Assembly: GCF_017551775.1 (NCBI RefSeq)
Contig: NZ_JAFZKX010000018.1
Coordinates: 6,761 to 70,760, forward strand
Length of the DNA: 64,000 bases
Reading direction: 5' to 3'
From: Fibrobacter sp.
GTDB lineage: Bacteria; Fibrobacterota; Fibrobacteria; Fibrobacterales; Fibrobacteraceae
Positions 29,946 to 37,789 of this stretch are shown here, piece by piece. The stretch's first letter is position 1. Each line of letters begins with the position of its first letter. Position numbers and translations under genes: made by a program. The notes below the pieces were generated by a model, which made no database searches, was not told where the DNA came from, and saw only the letters and a list, made by a program, of their open reading frames with translations.

Positions 29946-31073
29946 ATGCATAAACCCTTTGTCCTTTTCTGTGCGGGCGAGGATTCCGGCGATGTGCTGG
30001 GAGAATCCCTTGTGCGGGAGGCGATTCGCTTGGGGTTCAGGGCCCGCGGTGTCGGCGGGTGCCGGATGCAGGCGGTGGGTCTCGATGCCGTTGACGATTA
30101 TGAGGCGCTGCCTGTATCGGGCTTTCTCGATATCGTGCCGCAGGTGTTTCGCCTAAAGCGCATCTTAGCGCATCTCGAAGGCTTGCTGAAGAGCGAAGAC
30201 TGCGTTGCTATAGTCTGCATCGATTACCCCGGATTCAACATGAAGCTCGTGCGGCTTGCGGAACGCCTGGGCAAGCCCGCCTTGTATGTGGCGCCCCCGC
30301 AGGTCTGGGCCTGGAAGCGCGGTCGGGCCAAGCGTTTGCGTACGGCCCGCCTCGCAGTGCTGTTCGATTTTGAACGCAGGGTCTACGAGAAACTGGGCTG
30401 CAATGCGCAGTGCCTTCGCCATCCGTTCCCGCGGGTCACCGGAACCAATTCGAACGCAGACCTGTTGCTCCTTCCCGGCAGCCGCAAGTCTCAGTCCCTC
30501 CGCAACCTCCCGTTCTTTGCCGCCGTTGCATCGCAGTGGCATTCCGCGACGTCGGGCCGTGCAGTCGTGCTTGCCTCGCGCGAATCTCTTGTCGAACCCT
30601 TCACTCGGGCTATTCGCAAGGCCTTCGGGCAGCGTGTTCCCGAATGGATCTCGGTCGAGGTCCCGCCTCTGGATGCGCTTGCCCGCGCGACCAAGCTCAC
30701 GGAGTATTCCTACGCGCTTTCGGCTCCGGGGTCCGCTTCCCTCGAACTGGCGCGCTCCGGTGTGCCGCTTGTGGTCGCGGGCGTGATTGAGCCTCTTACG
30801 TATTTCATCGGGAGCCGCTTCGTGAAGACGGAATTCTTTGCGCTCCCGAACATCCTGCTTCAGCGCGGGGTCGTTCCCGAATTCTTCTTTACGCGCGGGA
30901 AAGCCTGCAAAAAGGTGAACGTCACCGCGGTTGCTGCGGAACTCTGCAAGTGCAATACAGAAACATCCAGGGCGATTGCGGATACCCTGGATGAGACGTT
31001 CGTGAATGCGAAAAGCTCCGAAGCTCTAATGCTTGAATTTCTTGGCGAGTTCGTCGAGCGTGATGCGCATTAG
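29946..31073 (+). CDS. lpxB: Lipid-A-disaccharide synthase
   Basis: AGEDSGD.LG, IDYPGFN, YVAPPQVWAWK.GR, LLPGSR, FFALPNILL. Confidence 0.88.
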   Translation: MHKPFVLFCAGEDSGDVLGESLVREAIRLGFRARGVGGCRMQAVGLDAVDDYEALPVSGFLDIVPQVFRLKRILAHLEGLLKSEDCVAIVCIDYPGFNMKLVRLAERLGKPALYVAPPQVWAWKRGRAKRLRTARLAVLFDFERRVYEKLGCNAQCLRHPFPRVTGTNSNADLLLLPGSRKSQSLRNLPFFAAVASQWHSATSGRAVVLASRESLVEPFTRAIRKAFGQRVPEWISVEVPPLDALARATKLTEYSYALSAPGSASLELARSGVPLVVAGVIEPLTYFIGSRFVKTEFFALPNILLQRGVVPEFFFTRGKACKKVNVTAVAAELCKCNTETSRAIADTLDETFVNAKSSEALMLEFLGEFVERDAH

Positions 31074-32870
31074 GGTGGGAGCCCCGTAGGGAGACTTGAG
31101 CGGGTCTTCTGTCGACATCAGCTGCCCCATCAACTGGGCCATTTCTTCGGGCTTGAGTTTGTCACCGGCCTGGTAAGCGTTGGTCCTGGACCATGCCTTC
31201 GCGATGGTGTCCGTGATGTGCGACGGGTCCGAATCTCCGGTGTCGGCGCAACTGTCGAGAAACTGGTGAACCGCCTTGATGGCACGGGAGAGGGGGAGCG
31301 CGCTCGGAATGGCGCGAATCTGGAAGGTGTCGCCACCGAAGTGCTCCACGAAAAATCCGAGTTTCCTCAACTGCCCGTCGACGCTTGCGAAGATTTGCTT
31401 TTCAAGCTTGCTGAGCTCGATGAGTTCCGGGAAGAGCAACTCCTGGCTGTCGAGGTCCGATCCGTTCTTTAATGTCGCGAGCGCTTGTTCGTAGAGAATG
31501 CGCGAATGCGCCGCATGCTGGTCGATGATGAGCAGGCCCTCGGCATCTTCTCCGGCGATGTAGGTGTTTGCAATCTGGAAAAGCGTCGGGGGTGTCCACG
31601 GGGCGCTCTCCGGCTTCGGCTCGGGGACGTTCCCTTGTCCGGGTTCAAGCGAGATTATCTTGCCGGCCTCGGGCTGCGAGAACAGGTCCTGCACGTCGTC
31701 TGCGACGCTGTAGCTCTTCGCCTTTTTCCACTCGTTCACTTCGTTATTGCGACGGGGTTCGGGCGTCTTGTAGATGGGGGCGGCGCTGTGTGCGGGGGCG
31801 GCCTGGTATTGCGGTACGGGCGCATCGCCGGTGTCCGCCTGCACCATGCTTGCACTCAGGTCGATAAACGGCGAGTTTGCCTCCAGGTCTTTCTGGAAGG
31901 TATCGCGGATGGCATGGTTCACCACAAGGAACACGAGGTTCTGGTTCGCGAAGCGCACCTCGCGCTTTGCCGGGTGTACGTTCACGTCGAATTCCTGGTC
32001 CGGCATGTCCAGAAACAGGACGGTTACCGGCTTGCACTGCGCGCCGTAGGGCTCGTATGCCTGCGAAACGGCCTTCGCGATCACCTTGCTTTCGATGGGC
32101 CTCTTGCGCATGAAGAGGAACTGGTGGTGGCGCTTGCCGTTAGTTTCTGTTGTGGGGGAGATGTACCCCGTTACGTGAACGCCGGCTTCGGTGTAGTCGA
32201 CCGGCAGGAGGTTCTTGGCGATTCCTGAGCCGATGGCTTCGGCGAGTCGGGTGCGCAGTTCTCCGGGAACCCCGATAAATACGGCTTTTTCACCGACTTT
32301 GTAGTCGAAGCGGATCTCGGGGTGCGCAATCGCGGTCTTCAGCACGACGTCGAGAATCTTCGTGCACTCGGAGGTCTCGCTCCCGAGGAACGTGCGGCGT
32401 ACGGGCGTGTTGAAGAACAGGTCTTCGACAAGGAAGGTCGTACCATGACCGGCGGCGTAAGTTTGTTCTTCTTCGACGTTCCCGCCTTTGAGGATTAACC
32501 GTCCGCCGTCACCATCTTCGGTGGCGGTCGAAATCGTCATTTTCGATATGGCGGCGATGGAGGCGACTGCTTCTCCGCGAAATCCGTTTGTTTGTAAATG
32601 GAATAGGTCGTCTGCCGAATGTAGTTTAGATGTAGTGTGTCTGAGGTAACAAAGGTCAAGGTCTTGCTTGCCCATCCCCTTGCCGTTGTCCGAAACGAGA
32701 ATTTTTTTCTTTCCGCCTTGTTCGATTTGAATTTGGATGCGAGTCGCTCCCGCATCGATGGCATTCTCGATAAGTTCCTTGACGGCGGATGAAGGACGCT
32801 CGATTACCTCACCGGCAGCGATTTTGTTGATAATTTCATCGGTTAAAACGTGTATTTCAGCGTTTTTCAT
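31026..32870 (-). CDS. mutL: DNA mismatch repair protein MutL (endonuclease motifs degenerate)
   Basis: IAAGEVIERPSSAVKELIENAIDAG, DNGKGM, GFRGEA, DVNVHPAKREVRF. C-terminal domain reads DQHAAHSRILYE. ATG at 32870. Confidence 0.95.
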   Translation of the reverse strand: MKNAEIHVLTDEIINKIAAGEVIERPSSAVKELIENAIDAGATRIQIQIEQGGKKKILVSDNGKGMGKQDLDLCYLRHTTSKLHSADDLFHLQTNGFRGEAVASIAAISKMTISTATEDGDGGRLILKGGNVEEEQTYAAGHGTTFLVEDLFFNTPVRRTFLGSETSECTKILDVVLKTAIAHPEIRFDYKVGEKAVFIGVPGELRTRLAEAIGSGIAKNLLPVDYTEAGVHVTGYISPTTETNGKRHHQFLFMRKRPIESKVIAKAVSQAYEPYGAQCKPVTVLFLDMPDQEFDVNVHPAKREVRFANQNLVFLVVNHAIRDTFQKDLEANSPFIDLSASMVQADTGDAPVPQYQAAPAHSAAPIYKTPEPRRNNEVNEWKKAKSYSVADDVQDLFSQPEAGKIISLEPGQGNVPEPKPESAPWTPPTLFQIANTYIAGEDAEGLLIIDQHAAHSRILYEQALATLKNGSDLDSQELLFPELIELSKLEKQIFASVDGQLRKLGFFVEHFGGDTFQIRAIPSALPLSRAIKAVHQFLDSCADTGDSDPSHITDTIAKAWSRTNAYQAGDKLKPEEMAQLMGQLMSTEDPLKSPYGAPTLMRITLDELAKKFKH

Positions 32871-33015
32871 GGCCAAAATATAGCCAAATCATACCCTTTA
32901 CCCTATTTTTTTGTTAAATTGGTGCTGGATTCCGGTGGTTAGGGGTCTCCAAAAAAGAGAGGATAGAATAGTGATATCGAATTTCTTTATGCAACTGGCT
33001 CACATTGAGTTGTTG

Positions 33016-34269
33016 ATGACCTATTCGGTCAAGGATATTCTTTCGCTTGTTCGTCGAGATGCACGATTCGATACAAAGCTCGTTAATGACTTGTTCTTCG
33101 AAGGAACATTCATTGACGAAAACTCCCACCATTTTGTCTTCGACAATCTGGTGCAATGGTTGTATGACCGTGGTGAAAATCCAGACGATTTCGTTGAACG
33201 AATAGTAAAACGATGCGCTGATTTCGAGGCAGTTCCTGCTCGTAGCGTTCTTCGTTCTTACTTGCCGTTCGTGTCGCAGTTCTACCAGACAAAGGACGTT
33301 CGCGCACTTTGCCTGGAAATAATTCCTAAGCGCTACCCGTTCCTTATCAATGCCGGAATTCTTCGCGATACTATTCAAGACGACGAACGGACGATGTTCT
33401 TCACCTTCCAGTTCGAGACACCGGGCGCCCTGGTTTCTAACCCGATGCGCTGGGCGCTTGGCCTCTTCCGCATTGGCCCGCTCCTCTTGAACACGCCCGC
33501 TTACGAGCATATGGGCTATGTTGCTACGCAGACCTCCTTTATTGAAGCCCTTGAAAACCGCGTCCCTGCCGAGATGGTGGATGGCAACGTTTACATTGGC
33601 GATAAGCTGGTTGGCCGGACCACCACGTTCGGTGAATGCATCGATGAATACGGCTTTGAATGGCCGAGAGCGTCTGAAAGGGAAATGGGCTGTGTGCTCG
33701 CTCTCGACGATGTCTATGATACCAAGACGAACTCTCTCTTGCTCCGCAAGGGCTGCTACTACGGTACGCCGAGCAACATCCTCGATGCGAGGTTCAAGGC
33801 GAATGTCGTCACTCAGGAACCGTTCCTCAAGCTGATGAGCTCCGTGGTTAAGCAGGAGTTCGACGTCTGGCAGCCTATCCAGAAGGCGCAGGAACAGCTT
33901 CTCGGAGCGATGAATGACTCTGTAGAAGTGGTGTATTACAAGAGCGATGACTCCATTTCGGTGAACAGCAAGCACCTCATGCGTAACGTGCCTGCTAGAA
34001 TTCTCCGCAACCTGCTGCGTGAATACACGGCAACGGGCCGCGAGGAATACGAGAACCGTGAATTCAAGCGCGATCCGTCCATCTGCATGGACCCGATGCG
34101 TCCGAACTTCGAGAGCAGGTTGAACCGTGTTATAGCTCACATCAACGGCACCGAAGAGAAGGATGGCTCCATGAGCGAAGGCGTGAAGAAGTTCTTTGAA
34201 ATCGAGCGTCATCGCCGTGGTGGCTTCAGATTCCTGCCGAAATGCAAGATTATTTTCCGTGAGGAATAA
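33016..34269 (+). CDS. Hypothetical protein with C-terminal winged-helix-like domain (putative regulator)
   Basis: Coding-like ORF (start 33016 or 32989). C-terminus ISVNSKHLMRNVPARILRNLL..GREEYENREFKRDP..NFESRLNRV..IERHRRGGFRF resembles OmpR/PhoB-type wHTH outputs. Confidence 0.6.
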   Translation: MTYSVKDILSLVRRDARFDTKLVNDLFFEGTFIDENSHHFVFDNLVQWLYDRGENPDDFVERIVKRCADFEAVPARSVLRSYLPFVSQFYQTKDVRALCLEIIPKRYPFLINAGILRDTIQDDERTMFFTFQFETPGALVSNPMRWALGLFRIGPLLLNTPAYEHMGYVATQTSFIEALENRVPAEMVDGNVYIGDKLVGRTTTFGECIDEYGFEWPRASEREMGCVLALDDVYDTKTNSLLLRKGCYYGTPSNILDARFKANVVTQEPFLKLMSSVVKQEFDVWQPIQKAQEQLLGAMNDSVEVVYYKSDDSISVNSKHLMRNVPARILRNLLREYTATGREEYENREFKRDPSICMDPMRPNFESRLNRVIAHINGTEEKDGSMSEGVKKFFEIERHRRGGFRFLPKCKIIFREE

Positions 34270-34309
34270 TTTTTTTACAAAATATTTTCGCAAAAAAGCC
34301 GAAAGACAC

Positions 34310-34338
34310 TTGCCGAATTGGCTTTTTTATGGTATATT
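34310..34338 (+). promoter_or_regulatory. Near-consensus sigma70 promoter
   Basis: TTGCCG (34310-15), 17-nt spacer, TGg-TATATT (34333-38). Confidence 0.75.
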
Positions 34339-34344
34339 TTAATT

Positions 34345-34479
34345 GTTGGGAATAGTGGAAAGGTAAATCCTCGAACAACTCCATCATTGCTCCCCTCCTG
34401 ATGGGTTTAAGGTTCCGGAAACGTCTCAATATTTTCTCCTTCTTAGGAAAGGGCCCCTCACGGGGCTCTTTCTTTTTTT
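34345..34479 (+). ncRNA. Candidate ~135-nt small RNA
   Basis: Bounded by a promoter and an intrinsic terminator with no credible ORF between them. Internal hairpin CCATCA/TGATGG with a C-rich loop. Confidence 0.55.
34447..34479 (+). terminator. Intrinsic terminator
   Basis: GAAAGGGCCCC-TCAC-GGGGCTCTTTC followed by T7. Confidence 0.85.
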
Positions 34480-34734
34480 ATACCGTTCGTTCGTCGTCTC
34501 GGGTATCGAGACCTCCGGTTCCTCACTCACTCTCGCGTACGACGGCTCGTTGATACGAGCCGCCTCTGGCTCACGGTTATACCGTTCGCTCGTCGTCTCG
34601 GGTATCGAGACCTCCGGCTTTTCACTCACTCTCGCCTACGACGGCTCGTTGATACGAGCCGCCTCTGGCTCACGGTTATACCGTTCGTTCGTCGTCTTGG
34701 GTATCGAGATCTTCGGTTCTTCGCTCACTCTCGC
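34478..34734. repeat. 99-bp tandem repeat (~2.6 copies) with two hairpins per unit, REP/BIME-like
   Basis: Units begin TTATACCGTTCG at 34478, 34577 and 34676. Each has TCTCG-GGTAT-CGAGA (TCTTG in the third unit); the two full units also have CGGCTCGT-TGAT-ACGAGCCG. Confidence 0.9.
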
Positions 34735-34826
34735 AATTGCCTCGGTTTATGCGATATGGTCGCAATGCTGCGCCTAGTGCTCGCAGTGAGCTTCTCGTTT
34801 GCTGTTTATCGTTTATTGCGGGTATG

Positions 34827-34853
34827 AAAAAGCCTCCGCTCGAGGCGGAGGCT
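34827..34853 (-). terminator. Intrinsic terminator of the sigma factor gene
   Basis: AGCCTCCGC-TCGAG-GCGGAGGCT with an A run on the left, giving a U tail on the minus strand. Confidence 0.8.
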
Positions 34854-34882
34854 GAAATTTAGAACAAATTATCGTCGCGTTC

Positions 34883-35695
34883 TTACTTGTTAATGGCGGC
34901 CAAGAAAGCGTCCTTCTTCTCTTGGAGGAATTCCTTGCTGTTGTACTTGCGGATGCGGCGGAGGGCCTGGTCACGCAGCTGGCGGACGCGTTCGTGCGAG
35001 ATGTTCATGGACTCGCCGACTTCGCGCAACGTCTGCGGTGCTTCCTGGTTGATACCGAAGATGCCGGTGATGACCTTCGCTTCGCGTTCGGGGAGCTGTT
35101 CCATCAAGTCGCGTGCGAGAACTTCGACGCTCTGGATTTCGGAATCGGCTTCCGGGTTCGTGGCGCCGGTATCGGGCAACACTTCGGCGTAGGTCGCCTT
35201 GGAGTCGGCCTTCAAGGGGCTGTCGAAGGAAACGCCGCGCTGGCCAATCTGGATGAGCTCGCGGATTTCTTCGTTGATTTCTTTACCGCGGGACTGTTCG
35301 TGCAAAGCCTTGCGCACGCGGAGGTGCTGGTTTGCCGGCAGGCGGATGAGGTTGCCCTGCTCGTTGATGGCACGGGTAATGTAAGCCTTGATCCACCACA
35401 CGCCATAACTGATGAACTTGAGGCCGCGGGTGTGTTCGAAGGATTCGATGGCACGAACGAGACCCATGGCGCCTTCGCTCACCAGGTCCGGGAGCGGAAT
35501 CGGGCAGCCGCGGTACTGGATGGCGACTTTCAAAACGAAGCGCATGTTCGCGGAAATCAGCTTCTTGCGTGCAATCTTGTCACCTTCTTTCGCTTTCTGG
35601 AATAGGATCTGCTCTTCTTCACGGGAAAGGGGGGCGGTCCTTCTAATGTCTTCGAGGTAACGTTTGAGTGTAGTATCGGTGGAATCTATATGCAT
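34883..35695 (-). CDS. RNA polymerase sigma-70 family factor, RpoD/RpoS/RpoH-like, lacking region 1.1
   Basis: Region 1.2 YLEDIRRTAPLSREEE; region 2 DLVSEGAMGLVRAIESF...KFISYGVWWIK; region 4 TLREVGESMNISHERVRQL. ATG 35695 follows AAGGA. Confidence 0.92.
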   Translation of the reverse strand: MHIDSTDTTLKRYLEDIRRTAPLSREEEQILFQKAKEGDKIARKKLISANMRFVLKVAIQYRGCPIPLPDLVSEGAMGLVRAIESFEHTRGLKFISYGVWWIKAYITRAINEQGNLIRLPANQHLRVRKALHEQSRGKEINEEIRELIQIGQRGVSFDSPLKADSKATYAEVLPDTGATNPEADSEIQSVEVLARDLMEQLPEREAKVITGIFGINQEAPQTLREVGESMNISHERVRQLRDQALRRIRKYNSKEFLQEKKDAFLAAINK

Positions 35696-35849
35696 TTTAT
35701 TTCCTTGCACCTTAAATATCGCTTTTTTTATTAGCAAGTAACGTGCCAAAAGTGTAAATTTTTAGACGAATTCTGTAAATTGCGCTTTTTTACGGGGTTC
35801 TGGAGGTCTTTTCCTGTTGAAAATTGTCATAAAACGGCTGAAAAGCTCT

Positions 35850-35876
35850 ACATTTGTTACAAAATGTAACAAATGT
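35850..35876. promoter_or_regulatory. Perfect palindromic operator candidate in the divergent sigma/methyltransferase intergenic region
   Basis: ACATTTGTTACA-AAA-TGTAACAAATGT. Confidence 0.55.
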
Positions 35877-36000
35877 CACGAATTTTGTAAACAAAAAGTT
35901 GTGGGCCCGAAGAAAAAAAATGTCGTGAGCGGGTTTTGCGCTCCCTCTTTTTCGTTTTTTGTGGTATTGTATTACGCTTTTTTCGTATATTTTGCCCGTT

Positions 36001-36780
36001 ATGTCAATTAAAGAACCAGATCAATCTGTATGGAACCGTTTTTGGCAGCGGAAAAATGACATGGGGAAGGTTTATCCGTCTTCGCCGTCCGTGCTGAACG
36101 CCATCAAGAAAAATTTTAAACTCGAGGGGCTCAAGGTGCTCGAAGTGGGTGCCGGTACGGGTCGCGACAGTGCTGAACTTGCGCGCTTGGGTGCCGAAGT
36201 CTACGTGCTCGATTTTGCTGAAAATAGCCTCAAGATTGTAGACGGCCTTCGTGCCCGCGAAAACCTTTACGAAAACCTGAAGCTGGTGCGCGGTGACGCC
36301 TTCAAGGCGCCTTTCCCCGATTGCACTTTCGATCTCGTTTTCCACCAGGGACTTGCTGAGCATTTCAAGAACTCGCTCCCGCTCATTCAGGAAAACTACC
36401 GCATCTTGAAGCATGGCGGCTGCTGCCTTTGCGATGTGCCGCAGACGGTGCACCCCTACACGATCATCAAGCATATCTTGATCGCGATGGACAAGTGGTT
36501 TGCCGGATGGGAAAAGCAGTTCACCATGGGACAGCTGAAGAAGCTGATGGTCGATGCCGGATTCAAGTGCGAATACGCCTACGGCGACTGGATGCGCCCG
36601 AACCTGTTCTACCGTATGTTGCGAGAACTCGGCTTCAAACTGGGTGTCGAACTCCCGAAGTATCCCTTGAACGGGACCATGTACCAGAAGGCGAAGGACG
36701 CTTTGCTCGATGCGCTGGTCTCTGTCCCTGTAATGCACTATACGCAGCTCTCCATCGGCGTCATCGGACGCAAGCCCTAG
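36001..36780 (+). CDS. Class I SAM-dependent methyltransferase
   Basis: VLEVGAGTG, VLDF, GDAFKAPFPDCTFDLVFHQG. TATATT lies 9 nt before ATG 36001. Confidence 0.9.
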   Translation: MSIKEPDQSVWNRFWQRKNDMGKVYPSSPSVLNAIKKNFKLEGLKVLEVGAGTGRDSAELARLGAEVYVLDFAENSLKIVDGLRARENLYENLKLVRGDAFKAPFPDCTFDLVFHQGLAEHFKNSLPLIQENYRILKHGGCCLCDVPQTVHPYTIIKHILIAMDKWFAGWEKQFTMGQLKKLMVDAGFKCEYAYGDWMRPNLFYRMLRELGFKLGVELPKYPLNGTMYQKAKDALLDALVSVPVMHYTQLSIGVIGRKP

Positions 36781-36787
36781 TATTCAT

Positions 36788-37789
36788 ATGTCGCTCCATC
36801 CCAAACTGAAGTCTTCACTTGTGTTCCTGGCTAAACTCCTGGTGACCATTGTCCCGGCGTTTTTCGTGTACAGGAATATCGTGAACGCTCCGGATTGGGA
36901 TATCGGCGATTTGTACAGGCTGTTCTCTGTGGAGGGCATCCTCCCGTTTACGTTTGCGCTGGTGTGCCTTGCCGCGTCGAATTTCACGGCGTGCCTGCAG
37001 TGGAAACTTTTGCTCGAACGGCAGGGCGTTCACCTGAACTACGGGCATCTGCTCAAGCTTTACTACGTGGGTCTGTTCTTCAACAACTTCATGCCGGGTA
37101 ACGTGGGCGGCGACGTGAAGAAGGTCTACGACATCCGCATGCAGGGCGGGCAAGATACCGTGGGCGCGGGCCTCACCGCGACGTTCTTCGATCGCCTGTA
37201 CGGTTTGTTCTTTGTTACTTTGTTTGCCCTCGCGATGGGTGCCTTGTTCTTTGTGCACGACGAGACGCAGCGTTCCTTCATCTGGCCGTCTATCTGGATT
37301 TTCCTCGGCTTCTGCGCATTGTTCGCGGGCCTCTGCAGCCGCCGCATCGGGCGCCTCTGCACGAACGTCATGTCGCGGTTCTTGCCGCAGTCCATTGGCG
37401 AGCGCCTCGTGCACATGTTCGAACGCTTTACTCATTTCCGCTCGTTCAAACTCTGGTGCCAGATTTCGCTCCTTTCTTTTGCGACGCAGGCGCTCCGCAT
37501 CTTCGTGCATTTCTACTGCGGTATCGCGGTGGGCGTTACGCTTTCTATTTCTTGGTATTTCTACTACATCCCGCTGGTCGCCATCGTGAGTGCGCTCCCG
37601 ATATCCATCGGCGGTTTCGGCCCGCGTGAACTCTTGGCGCAGACGCTCTTCGCCCGTGCCGGCGTGGCGAGCCTCGAATCGGTAGTAATCCAGCTGCTCG
37701 CTTATTTTGTGAGTTTGATTCTGAGTTTGTTTGGCGCGTTCGTCTTCCTCTTGGGAGGGAAGTCGTCGACTGCTAAGGCTGTCAGGTAA
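36788..37789 (+). CDS. Lysylphosphatidylglycerol-synthase-TM / UPF0104 flippase-like membrane protein
   Basis: QWKLLL, GLFFNNFMPGNVGGDVKK, FFDRLYGL, LPISIGGFGPRE. Confidence 0.85.
   Translation: MSLHPKLKSSLVFLAKLLVTIVPAFFVYRNIVNAPDWDIGDLYRLFSVEGILPFTFALVCLAASNFTACLQWKLLLERQGVHLNYGHLLKLYYVGLFFNNFMPGNVGGDVKKVYDIRMQGGQDTVGAGLTATFFDRLYGLFFVTLFALAMGALFFVHDETQRSFIWPSIWIFLGFCALFAGLCSRRIGRLCTNVMSRFLPQSIGERLVHMFERFTHFRSFKLWCQISLLSFATQALRIFVHFYCGIAVGVTLSISWYFYYIPLVAIVSALPISIGGFGPRELLAQTLFARAGVASLESVVIQLLAYFVSLILSLFGAFVFLLGGKSSTAKAVR

Follow-up and report, generated by a model that had tools for sequence, protein, structure and literature searches.

In Helicobacter pylori, an organism without Hfq, the small RNA (sRNA) RepG uses the C/U-rich loop of its terminator to pair with a variable G-repeat leader, and in enterobacteria the Hfq-dependent sRNAs DapZ and MicL are embedded in 3'UTRs and made from internal promoters. 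[quoted passage not shown] RoxS has also been studied by psoralen crosslinking with ligation (PMC8216469). The Listeria monocytogenes sRNAs LhrC1-5 bind the SD of their targets through redundant CU-rich sites, located in a loop and in the single strand before the terminator; Hfq is not required for this binding, and LhrC expression needs the response regulator LisR (PMC4132741, PMC5880928).

Here we analyze an RNA element of the Fibrobacteraceae that looks familiar in kind, as a C-rich-loop sRNA that would act in trans, and appears to be new as a family. It resembles RsaE/RoxS in its length class (about 100-130 nt), in having its own promoter and terminator, in its invariant C-rich motifs and in its presence across a wide taxon, but it belongs to another phylum, has no sequence or covariance-model similarity to them, and carries one universal C-rich loop where RsaE/RoxS have 3-4 C-rich regions. 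With LhrC it shares CU-rich tracts in a loop and before the terminator as well as tandem or multiple copies, here in two genera; however, the two are not homologous, the Fibrobacteraceae RNA is single-copy in nearly all genomes, and nothing in LhrC corresponds to its long covarying rod or to its constant internal loop. A conserved C/U-rich hairpin loop, a proposed G-rich leader target and the lack of a detectable Hfq recall RepG, although RepG uses its terminator loop and a G-repeat target, and no G-repeat target was found for the Fibrobacteraceae RNA. As with DapZ and MicL, the RNA lies on the same strand directly past a protein gene, with its own promoter and a terminator probably shared with that gene, but those enterobacterial sRNAs depend on Hfq. 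The Fibrobacteraceae RNA survives loss of the upstream gene.

The element lies in the 64,000-nt stretch of Fibrobacter sp. DNA analyzed here, which we call the window. A first-pass annotation, made from the sequence of the window, had proposed an unannotated sRNA of about 135 nt whose two anti-SD pyrimidine tracts could selectively repress SD-led mRNAs in a cell with many leaderless mRNAs. The element and its surroundings comprise the following features.

31026-32876, minus strand: mutL, divergent from the 432-aa protein gene
32971-34269, plus strand: gene for a 432-aa protein, upstream context and not a proven part of the element
34310-34315, plus strand: -35-like hexamer TTGCCG (sigma-70 consensus scan, upstream-region comparison)
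34330-34338, plus strand: extended -10 box TGgTATATT, with TATATT itself at 34333-34338 (consensus scan, alignment)
34345-34480, plus strand: the sRNA, about 135 nt, from its probable start at G34345 to the terminator U-run (extent from conservation and covariance-model matches)
34345-34351, plus strand: 5' arm of the P0 closing helix, GUUGGGA, pairing with UCUCAAU at 34424-34430; both sides vary in each of its 6 pairs (fold, covariation, alignment-free tests)
34362-34371, plus strand: invariant block GGUAAAUCCU, consisting of GG of P1a, the internal loop UAAAU and CCU of P1 (alignments)
34381-34404, plus strand: P2 hairpin, CCAUCA / 12-nt apical loop UUGCUCCCCUCC at 34387-34398 / UGAUGG (stem covariation)
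34409-34416, plus strand: 3' partner block AAGGUUCC, consisting of AGG of P1, UU and CC of P1a (alignment, covariation)
34424-34430, plus strand: 3' arm of the P0 closing helix (fold, covariation, alignment-free test)
34431-34444, plus strand: CU-rich single-stranded tract AUUUUCUCCUUCUU, invariant in Fibrobacter and absent in most other genera (alignments)
34445-34480, plus strand: intrinsic terminator, AGGAAAGGGCCCC / loop UCAC / GGGGCUCUUUCUU / U7 (terminator scan; 14 stem pairs covary across genera)
34478-34734: 99-bp tandem repeat, 2.6 copies, directly after the sRNA terminator
34883-35749, minus strand: sigma-70-family gene, convergent, downstream

Promoter, probable start site and terminator

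A consensus scan of positions 33800-35200 returned TTGCCG-17-TATATT as the sole sigma-70-like site, and the hexamers and the 17-nt spacer ending in TGG lie where the first-pass annotation had placed them. All Fibrobacter orthologues have TATATT without variation, in most cases preceded by TG, and most other genera have a CTATATT box ahead of the RNA. In the source genome TATATT, not TATAAT, is the hexamer enriched before ATG: copies beginning at positions -15 to -12, which puts them 6-9 nt ahead of the ATG, number 12, 17, 23 and 29 (background about 3-4). By crude gene calls this leaderless-type signature marks about 10% of starts (background 3.7%), and SD-like motifs precede about 36% (background 12%). 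These counts indicate that TATATT is the -10 box of the organism and that many of its mRNAs are leaderless, starting about 7 nt past the hexamer, as the first-pass annotation had supposed. Applying the TATATT-to-ATG spacing of leaderless genes (about 6-7 nt) to the sRNA would place its start at about G34345, where the closing helix begins. The mutL promoter, at window positions 32877-32882 for example, is kept across the family as GGCTATATT-N6-ATG.

The TTGCCG -35 hexamer is specific to the clade of the source genome. Most Fibrobacter have no TTGACA-like -35; conserved in its place is a block, ATAAGnAAAAnGrwAGwwCC, which spans 38 to 19 nt ahead of the -10 box and has its AAG triplets spaced by 11 bp (seen in loci L003-L085). 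The block is absent at the equivalent positions of the source-genome clade (34295-34314), and its equivalent in other genera reads ATAAG-N6-ATAAG. This conserved upstream block may be an activator site, a hint of control resembling that of LhrC by LisR. We rejected the idea that it is the stop codon of the upstream gene in Fibrobacter, where that stop was located 39-180 nt ahead of the -10 box.

At the other end of the element, the strong terminator claimed at first reading is borne out as a 13-bp stem at 34445-34474 with 7 G-C pairs, followed by a T-run. The element also appears to be noncoding, as had been claimed: the single ORF spanning it, a 50-aa ATG ORF at 34401-34553, reads through the terminator, its ATG is missing in most orthologues, and we found no conserved ORF in the element. 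Since a repeat and a convergent gene lie downstream, the element is not the leader of a downstream gene.

A covarying hairpin with a constant loop

Folded as a single sequence the element is unremarkable (-40.7 kcal/mol, z = -1.59). We therefore describe its structure from an alignment with other genera under a covariance model, R1, which was built from 66 distinct sequences and a hand-curated structure, has 141 positions and 38 pairs, and scores 102-151 bits on the collected loci (85/85). In this alignment the RNA forms one long irregular hairpin followed by a single-stranded tail and the terminator. From its base the hairpin consists of P0/P0b, in which the 5' end pairs with nt ~74-86, a GG/CY step, an asymmetric internal loop UAAAU/UU, P1, P2 and a 12-nt apical loop.

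In a 31-sequence alignment 91.9% of cells paired, compared with 69.4% after column shuffles and 43-53% with slid partners. Changes on both sides were seen in 28 of the 38 pairs, among them every one of the 10 in P0/P0b and of the 14 in the terminator. This alignment had been fitted to the R1 model, and the closing helix was therefore also tested without any alignment. Within the genus, cognate arms paired at -9.55 kcal/mol and non-cognate arms at -7.13; across genera the values were -10.90 and -5.52 kcal/mol. In each comparison 0 of 20000 permutations were as good, a type of test whose outcome is inflated by the relatedness of the sequences. Covariation of the closing helix is unambiguous, with GAUGAGAUGGC/GCCAUCUCAUC, GUUGAG/CUCAAU and GGCGGA/UCCGCC replacing one another, and the P2 stem covaries C-G/U-A/U-G. 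Frequent G-U pairs would become A-C mismatches on the other strand, which leaves the plus strand as the one transcribed. Covariation in the orthologous loci, which the first-pass annotation had named as a check, is thus strong.

The stem and exposed C-rich loop described at first reading are present in the DNA as CCATCA (34381-34386), TTGCTCCCCTCC (34387-34398) and TGATGG (34399-34404). Further along, TTCTCCTT occupies 34434-34441 and includes CTCCTT (34436-34441). As in C-rich-motif sRNAs, the conserved C-rich motifs are predicted to be unpaired, namely the loop UUGCUCCCCUCC and, in Fibrobacter, the second tract. The predicted unpaired probability of the apical loop is 0.95 in the source genome and 0.4-0.7 in other genera, and that of tract 2 is 0.72 in the source genome.

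Three elements, GGUAAAUCCU, AUCAUUGCUCCCCUCCUG and RGGUUC, are invariant across all aligned genera, and the stems between them covary. All principal copies from the 10 aligned genera have the 12-nt loop UUGCUCCCCUCC unchanged, with slight variation in the second tandem copies of two genera. Tract 2, UUUUCUCCUUCUU, is invariant within Fibrobacter together with the AGGAAAG foot of the terminator; elsewhere its place is taken by a short U-rich or unrelated linker. The pair of pyrimidine tracts proposed at first therefore holds for the source genome but not as a universal feature, tract 2 being essentially confined to the genus Fibrobacter and to the second tandem copies of two other genera. Because tract 2 is replaced outside Fibrobacter while the loop is invariant, the C-rich apical loop appears to be the universal functional element and tract 2 a genus-level addition.

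Both tracts resemble the anti-SD region of the ribosome. The family 16S rRNA ends in GGAUUACCUCCUUUAAGGAG, and its tail ACCUCCUUU contains both CCUCCU, found in the loop, and CUCCUU, found in tract 2, so that each copies six bases of the anti-SD region; the likeness claimed at first reading is real. Tract 2 is in addition complementary to a generic AAGGAGAAAA ribosome-binding site plus spacer. An invariant loop between covarying flanks is the usual signature of a seed, and the invariance of all 12 loop bases and of the GGUAAAUCCU/RGGUUC internal loop goes beyond what anti-SD pairing alone explains.

A single-copy RNA family of the Fibrobacteraceae

BLAST against relatives found one copy (74-92% identity) in 23/24 genomes of the same genus, whereas 16 genomes from outside it had none. 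The laboratory strain Fibrobacter succinogenes S85 is among the carriers of an orthologue. Past a variable spacer, the conserved sequence sets in precisely with the -10 box and extends as far as the terminator, and the possibility raised by the first-pass annotation that the sequence is not conserved can be set aside. An exact two-motif pattern searched over about 186,000 species genomes hit 65 contigs, all from Fibrobacter, Fibrobacteraceae or Fibrobacterales MAGs. With R1 we detected the RNA in 139/151 Fibrobacteraceae genomes and 11/12 genera, and in 140/144 Fibrobacteraceae genomes of a second draw (E <= 0.01). The model had no matches in 6 genomes from 3 sister families of the order and none in 26 genomes from 10 other families in the rest of the phylum.

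Genomes have a single copy, apart from two genera in which the RNA occurs as a tandem pair. The tandem copies lie about 100 nt apart (L100 2001-2378, L102 2001-2377, L105 2001-2318). In the second of them the loop is slightly altered (for example CGUUCCCCUCUUG) and the second CU tract resembles that of Fibrobacter.

The comparison with Rfam that the first-pass annotation had called for yielded no family. At gathering thresholds Rfam 15 (4227 models) had no match anywhere in the window, and below threshold (E <= 10) the best match reached at most 24 bits with E of at least 0.7. The RsaE/RoxS and LhrC models did not match even at E <= 10. We rejected 6S RNA, as RF00013 matched neither in the window nor anywhere in the genome, and likewise a 6S-type rod with a central bubble, since the 5' end pairs with nt ~80-86 rather than with the 3' end and is followed by a tail and an intrinsic terminator. 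Membership in the SRP or RsaE families was rejected on the same lack of Rfam matches. The searched literature on regulatory RNAs of Fibrobacter and its phylum describes no sRNA and only the cis-acting Fibro-purF motif.

Together the invariant -10 box, the conserved terminator, the family-wide single copy and the plus-strand covariation give strong comparative support to the unannotated, independently transcribed sRNA that had been proposed. Judged by this comparison of sequences, its conservation is far beyond chance, and the element represents a real and robust, previously undescribed structured small RNA family of the Fibrobacteraceae.

Neighborhood and the upstream 432-aa protein

The RNA always adjoins mutL and usually lies directly past the gene for the 432-aa protein, which is on the same strand and immediately upstream in 85/85 Fibrobacter loci and in most other genera. 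In the 85 loci the distance from the end of this gene to the RNA is 100-240 nt, and the downstream side is variable. The spacing from the stop codon to the -10 box in Fibrobacter varies from 39 to 180 nt, and in other genera the RNA follows the stop codon after only 48-82 nt. We found no strong terminator between the gene and the RNA in the source genome.

In three genomes from three genera, 92-96% complete, a homologue of the 432-aa protein is absent genome-wide, and the RNA with its invariant loop is kept beside mutL, with a promoter-like box ahead of it. This persistence argues that the RNA is an independent gene, and it makes it unlikely that the RNA must form a complex with the 432-aa protein or has that protein as its dedicated activator.

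The 432-aa protein is confined to the Fibrobacteraceae and is hypothetical in sources that name it. Conservation is highest in its last 130 aa, a very basic region. Searches against Pfam, NCBIfam and PDB sequences gave no matches. AF2 models of the protein are confident (pLDDT 87 and 84), and Foldseek searches with them returned nothing significant, the weak resemblances being H-NOX-like at the N terminus (TM 0.45) and winged-helix-like at the C terminus (TM 0.48).

The 99-bp repeat downstream of the RNA belongs to a dispersed family: at least 18 other contigs of the genome carry copies that are 76-85% identical and frequently arrayed in tandem. Its copy number at this site differs in the nearest relative.

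Search for pairing partners

We scanned 14179 candidate start windows for duplexes with the loop, using reversed and shuffled queries as controls. At -18 kcal/mol or below the loop had 95 duplexes at starts, compared with 92, 87 and 317 for the controls, and thus no enrichment. A genome-wide duplex scan without gene context was too noisy at 54% GC, and in this duplex scan we saw no other long conserved complement of the loop in its own genome.

The best match in the source genome, AAGGAGUGGAGCAAUGA on contig C53, spans the SD and AUG of a gene for a T9SS-tailed CIA30-like protein. We rejected it as a target, since it belongs to a fast-evolving 13-member paralogue family and the site is unconserved. 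These secreted paralogues, with 13 matches in the genome, lie on contigs C53 (14388-17943), C4, C106, C7 and C47, several of them in tandem and with G-rich SDs such as AGGGGGAA. Other candidates were likewise discarded: the sites at an ExbB-like gene, on C113 and C7, and at rsmH (RsmH) are not conserved in other genera, the C82 candidate is a spurious ORF, and the C49 candidate has no orthologues.

The sole conserved candidate site is GGNGGGGAGGAAUAA, just before the ATG of a tonB-like gene at the exbD-tonB junction, found in 10 genera. Its duplex with the loop is predicted at about -18.7 to -23.2 kcal/mol, which ranks it among roughly the best 0.7% of start windows. We regard it as a candidate and not as evidence, because the C-terminal codons of exbD and the tonB SD together explain its conservation. 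In the source genome the operon, exbD (297 aa)-exbD (182 aa)-tonB-like (311 aa), lies on contig C9 at 33743-37675, with the tonB SD GGGGAGGAA inside the last exbD codons. Conservation of the TonB-like protein is unusually high, with 78-98% identity between most of the family's genera.

Two further pairings were considered and dropped. Pairing of the loop sequence UUGCUCCCC with GGGGAGCAA in 16S helix 24 is contradicted by the rRNA, which reads GGGUAGCAA in Fibrobacter but GGGAAGCAA in a further genus, with no corresponding change in the loop. Autoregulation through the loop was rejected for both the upstream 432-aa gene and mutL, as neither start region has conserved complementarity to it. Helix 24 of 16S rRNA is normally universal as GGGGAGCAAACAGG; the variant GGGUAGCAA was read in a Fibrobacter genome and GGGAAGCAA in a second genus of the family, from the 16S genes of two relatives (L189/L190).

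Complementarity of the RNA to GGAGG-type SDs exists. Of the translational repression of SD-led mRNAs proposed at first reading, this complementarity stands, whereas complementarity at start sites is not enriched over controls and most predicted sites are unconserved; repression itself stays at the level of a suggestion.

Hfq (PF17209) was not found in the 98%-complete source genome, in searches whose positive controls responded, and neither CsrA (PF02599) nor RRM_1 had a match there. We accordingly rejected membership in the Hfq-dependent class of sRNAs. A CsrB/RsmZ-type sponge was also rejected, with no CsrA match, no repeated GGA loops, and a single apical loop that is C-rich.

Discussion

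We give about an even chance to the reading in which the element is a stand-alone gene, with its own promoter and terminator, for an Hfq-independent trans-acting sRNA that masks G-rich ribosome-binding sites. The RNA would be transcribed from its TATATT promoter and end at its intrinsic terminator, and its C-rich loop, together with tract 2 where present, would pair antisense in trans without Hfq. Its partners would be the G-rich ribosome-binding-site sequences of a small set of mRNAs, on which pairing would block 30S binding and lower translation, as for RsaE/RoxS and LhrC in Firmicutes. We favor this reading because the anatomy matches that of C-rich-motif sRNAs and because no Hfq, CsrA or RRM_1 was detectable, a lack that fits C/G-rich pairing needing no chaperone. 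Expression, action in trans, action on ribosome-binding sites and the choice of targets are what we infer from the sequence; the comparison itself establishes the gene, its structure and distribution, and the anti-SD likeness of its tracts.

The invariance of the RNA exceeds what an anti-SD seed needs, extending to the internal-loop block and to all 12 loop bases, and it is this excess that a protein partner could explain. In such a ribonucleoprotein the protein would recognize the internal loop GGUAAAUCCU/RGGUUC or the apical loop, or perhaps both, and the RNA would scaffold, sequester or guide the protein. The absence of a convincing conserved mRNA target from the start-site and candidate searches would then be expected, and the tightly linked 432-aa protein, with its very basic and best-conserved C-terminal 130 aa, is suggestive. 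However, the three genomes of 92-96% completeness keep the RNA without any homologue of that protein, Hfq, CsrA and RRM_1 are undetectable, the RNA lacks GGA loops of the CsrB type, and no other partner can be named; we consider a protein-binding role unlikely, though worth keeping in view. A constant 12-nt loop might equally imply a constant nucleic-acid partner away from ribosome-binding sites, where matches are not enriched. Base-pairing with a coding region, a 3'UTR, another sRNA (as a sponge) or a tRNA or rRNA precursor nevertheless seems improbable to us, with helix-24 pairing refuted and no other long conserved complement in the RNA's own genome.

The likeness of both tracts to parts of the 16S tail, and the complementarity of tract 2 to the generic AAGGAGAAAA site plus spacer, would also suit a global mimic: a decoy of the 16S 3' tail, abundant when induced, that binds SDs broadly and shifts ribosomes from SD-led to leaderless mRNAs, both of which coexist in this genome. 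Such a mimic is distinctly improbable, as tract 2 is absent in most genera, a single sRNA would have to match the abundance of mRNA, and a generic decoy has no need of the loop bases outside CCUCC, which are also invariant. Least probable of all, in our estimate, is that the element is just the structured 3'UTR and terminator of the 432-aa gene, affecting mRNA stability or termination in cis and doing nothing in trans. Its position on the same strand directly after that gene, wherever the gene is present, agrees with such a role, as do the scant room for a separate terminator in the 48-82 nt gap of other genera and the lack of a strong terminator between gene and RNA in the source genome. Against it, conservation begins at an invariant -10 box after a variable 39-180 nt spacer past the stop codon, the RNA and its promoter-like box are kept beside mutL in genomes without the gene, the loop has no conserved complementarity to the start region of the gene, and some genera carry tandem duplicated copies. 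Masking of ribosome-binding sites in trans by an independently transcribed RNA thus remains the reading we favor.

Fibrobacter are the main cellulose degraders of the rumen. If the anti-SD mimic were true, the RNA would switch the cell globally from one of its two modes of translation to the other. A single-copy RNA found in about 95% of family genomes, with a seed-like invariant loop, offers a strong entry to post-transcriptional control in this lineage. Its value lies in strong comparative evidence, a ready covariance model, a defined loop, and the question of what so constant a loop recognizes.
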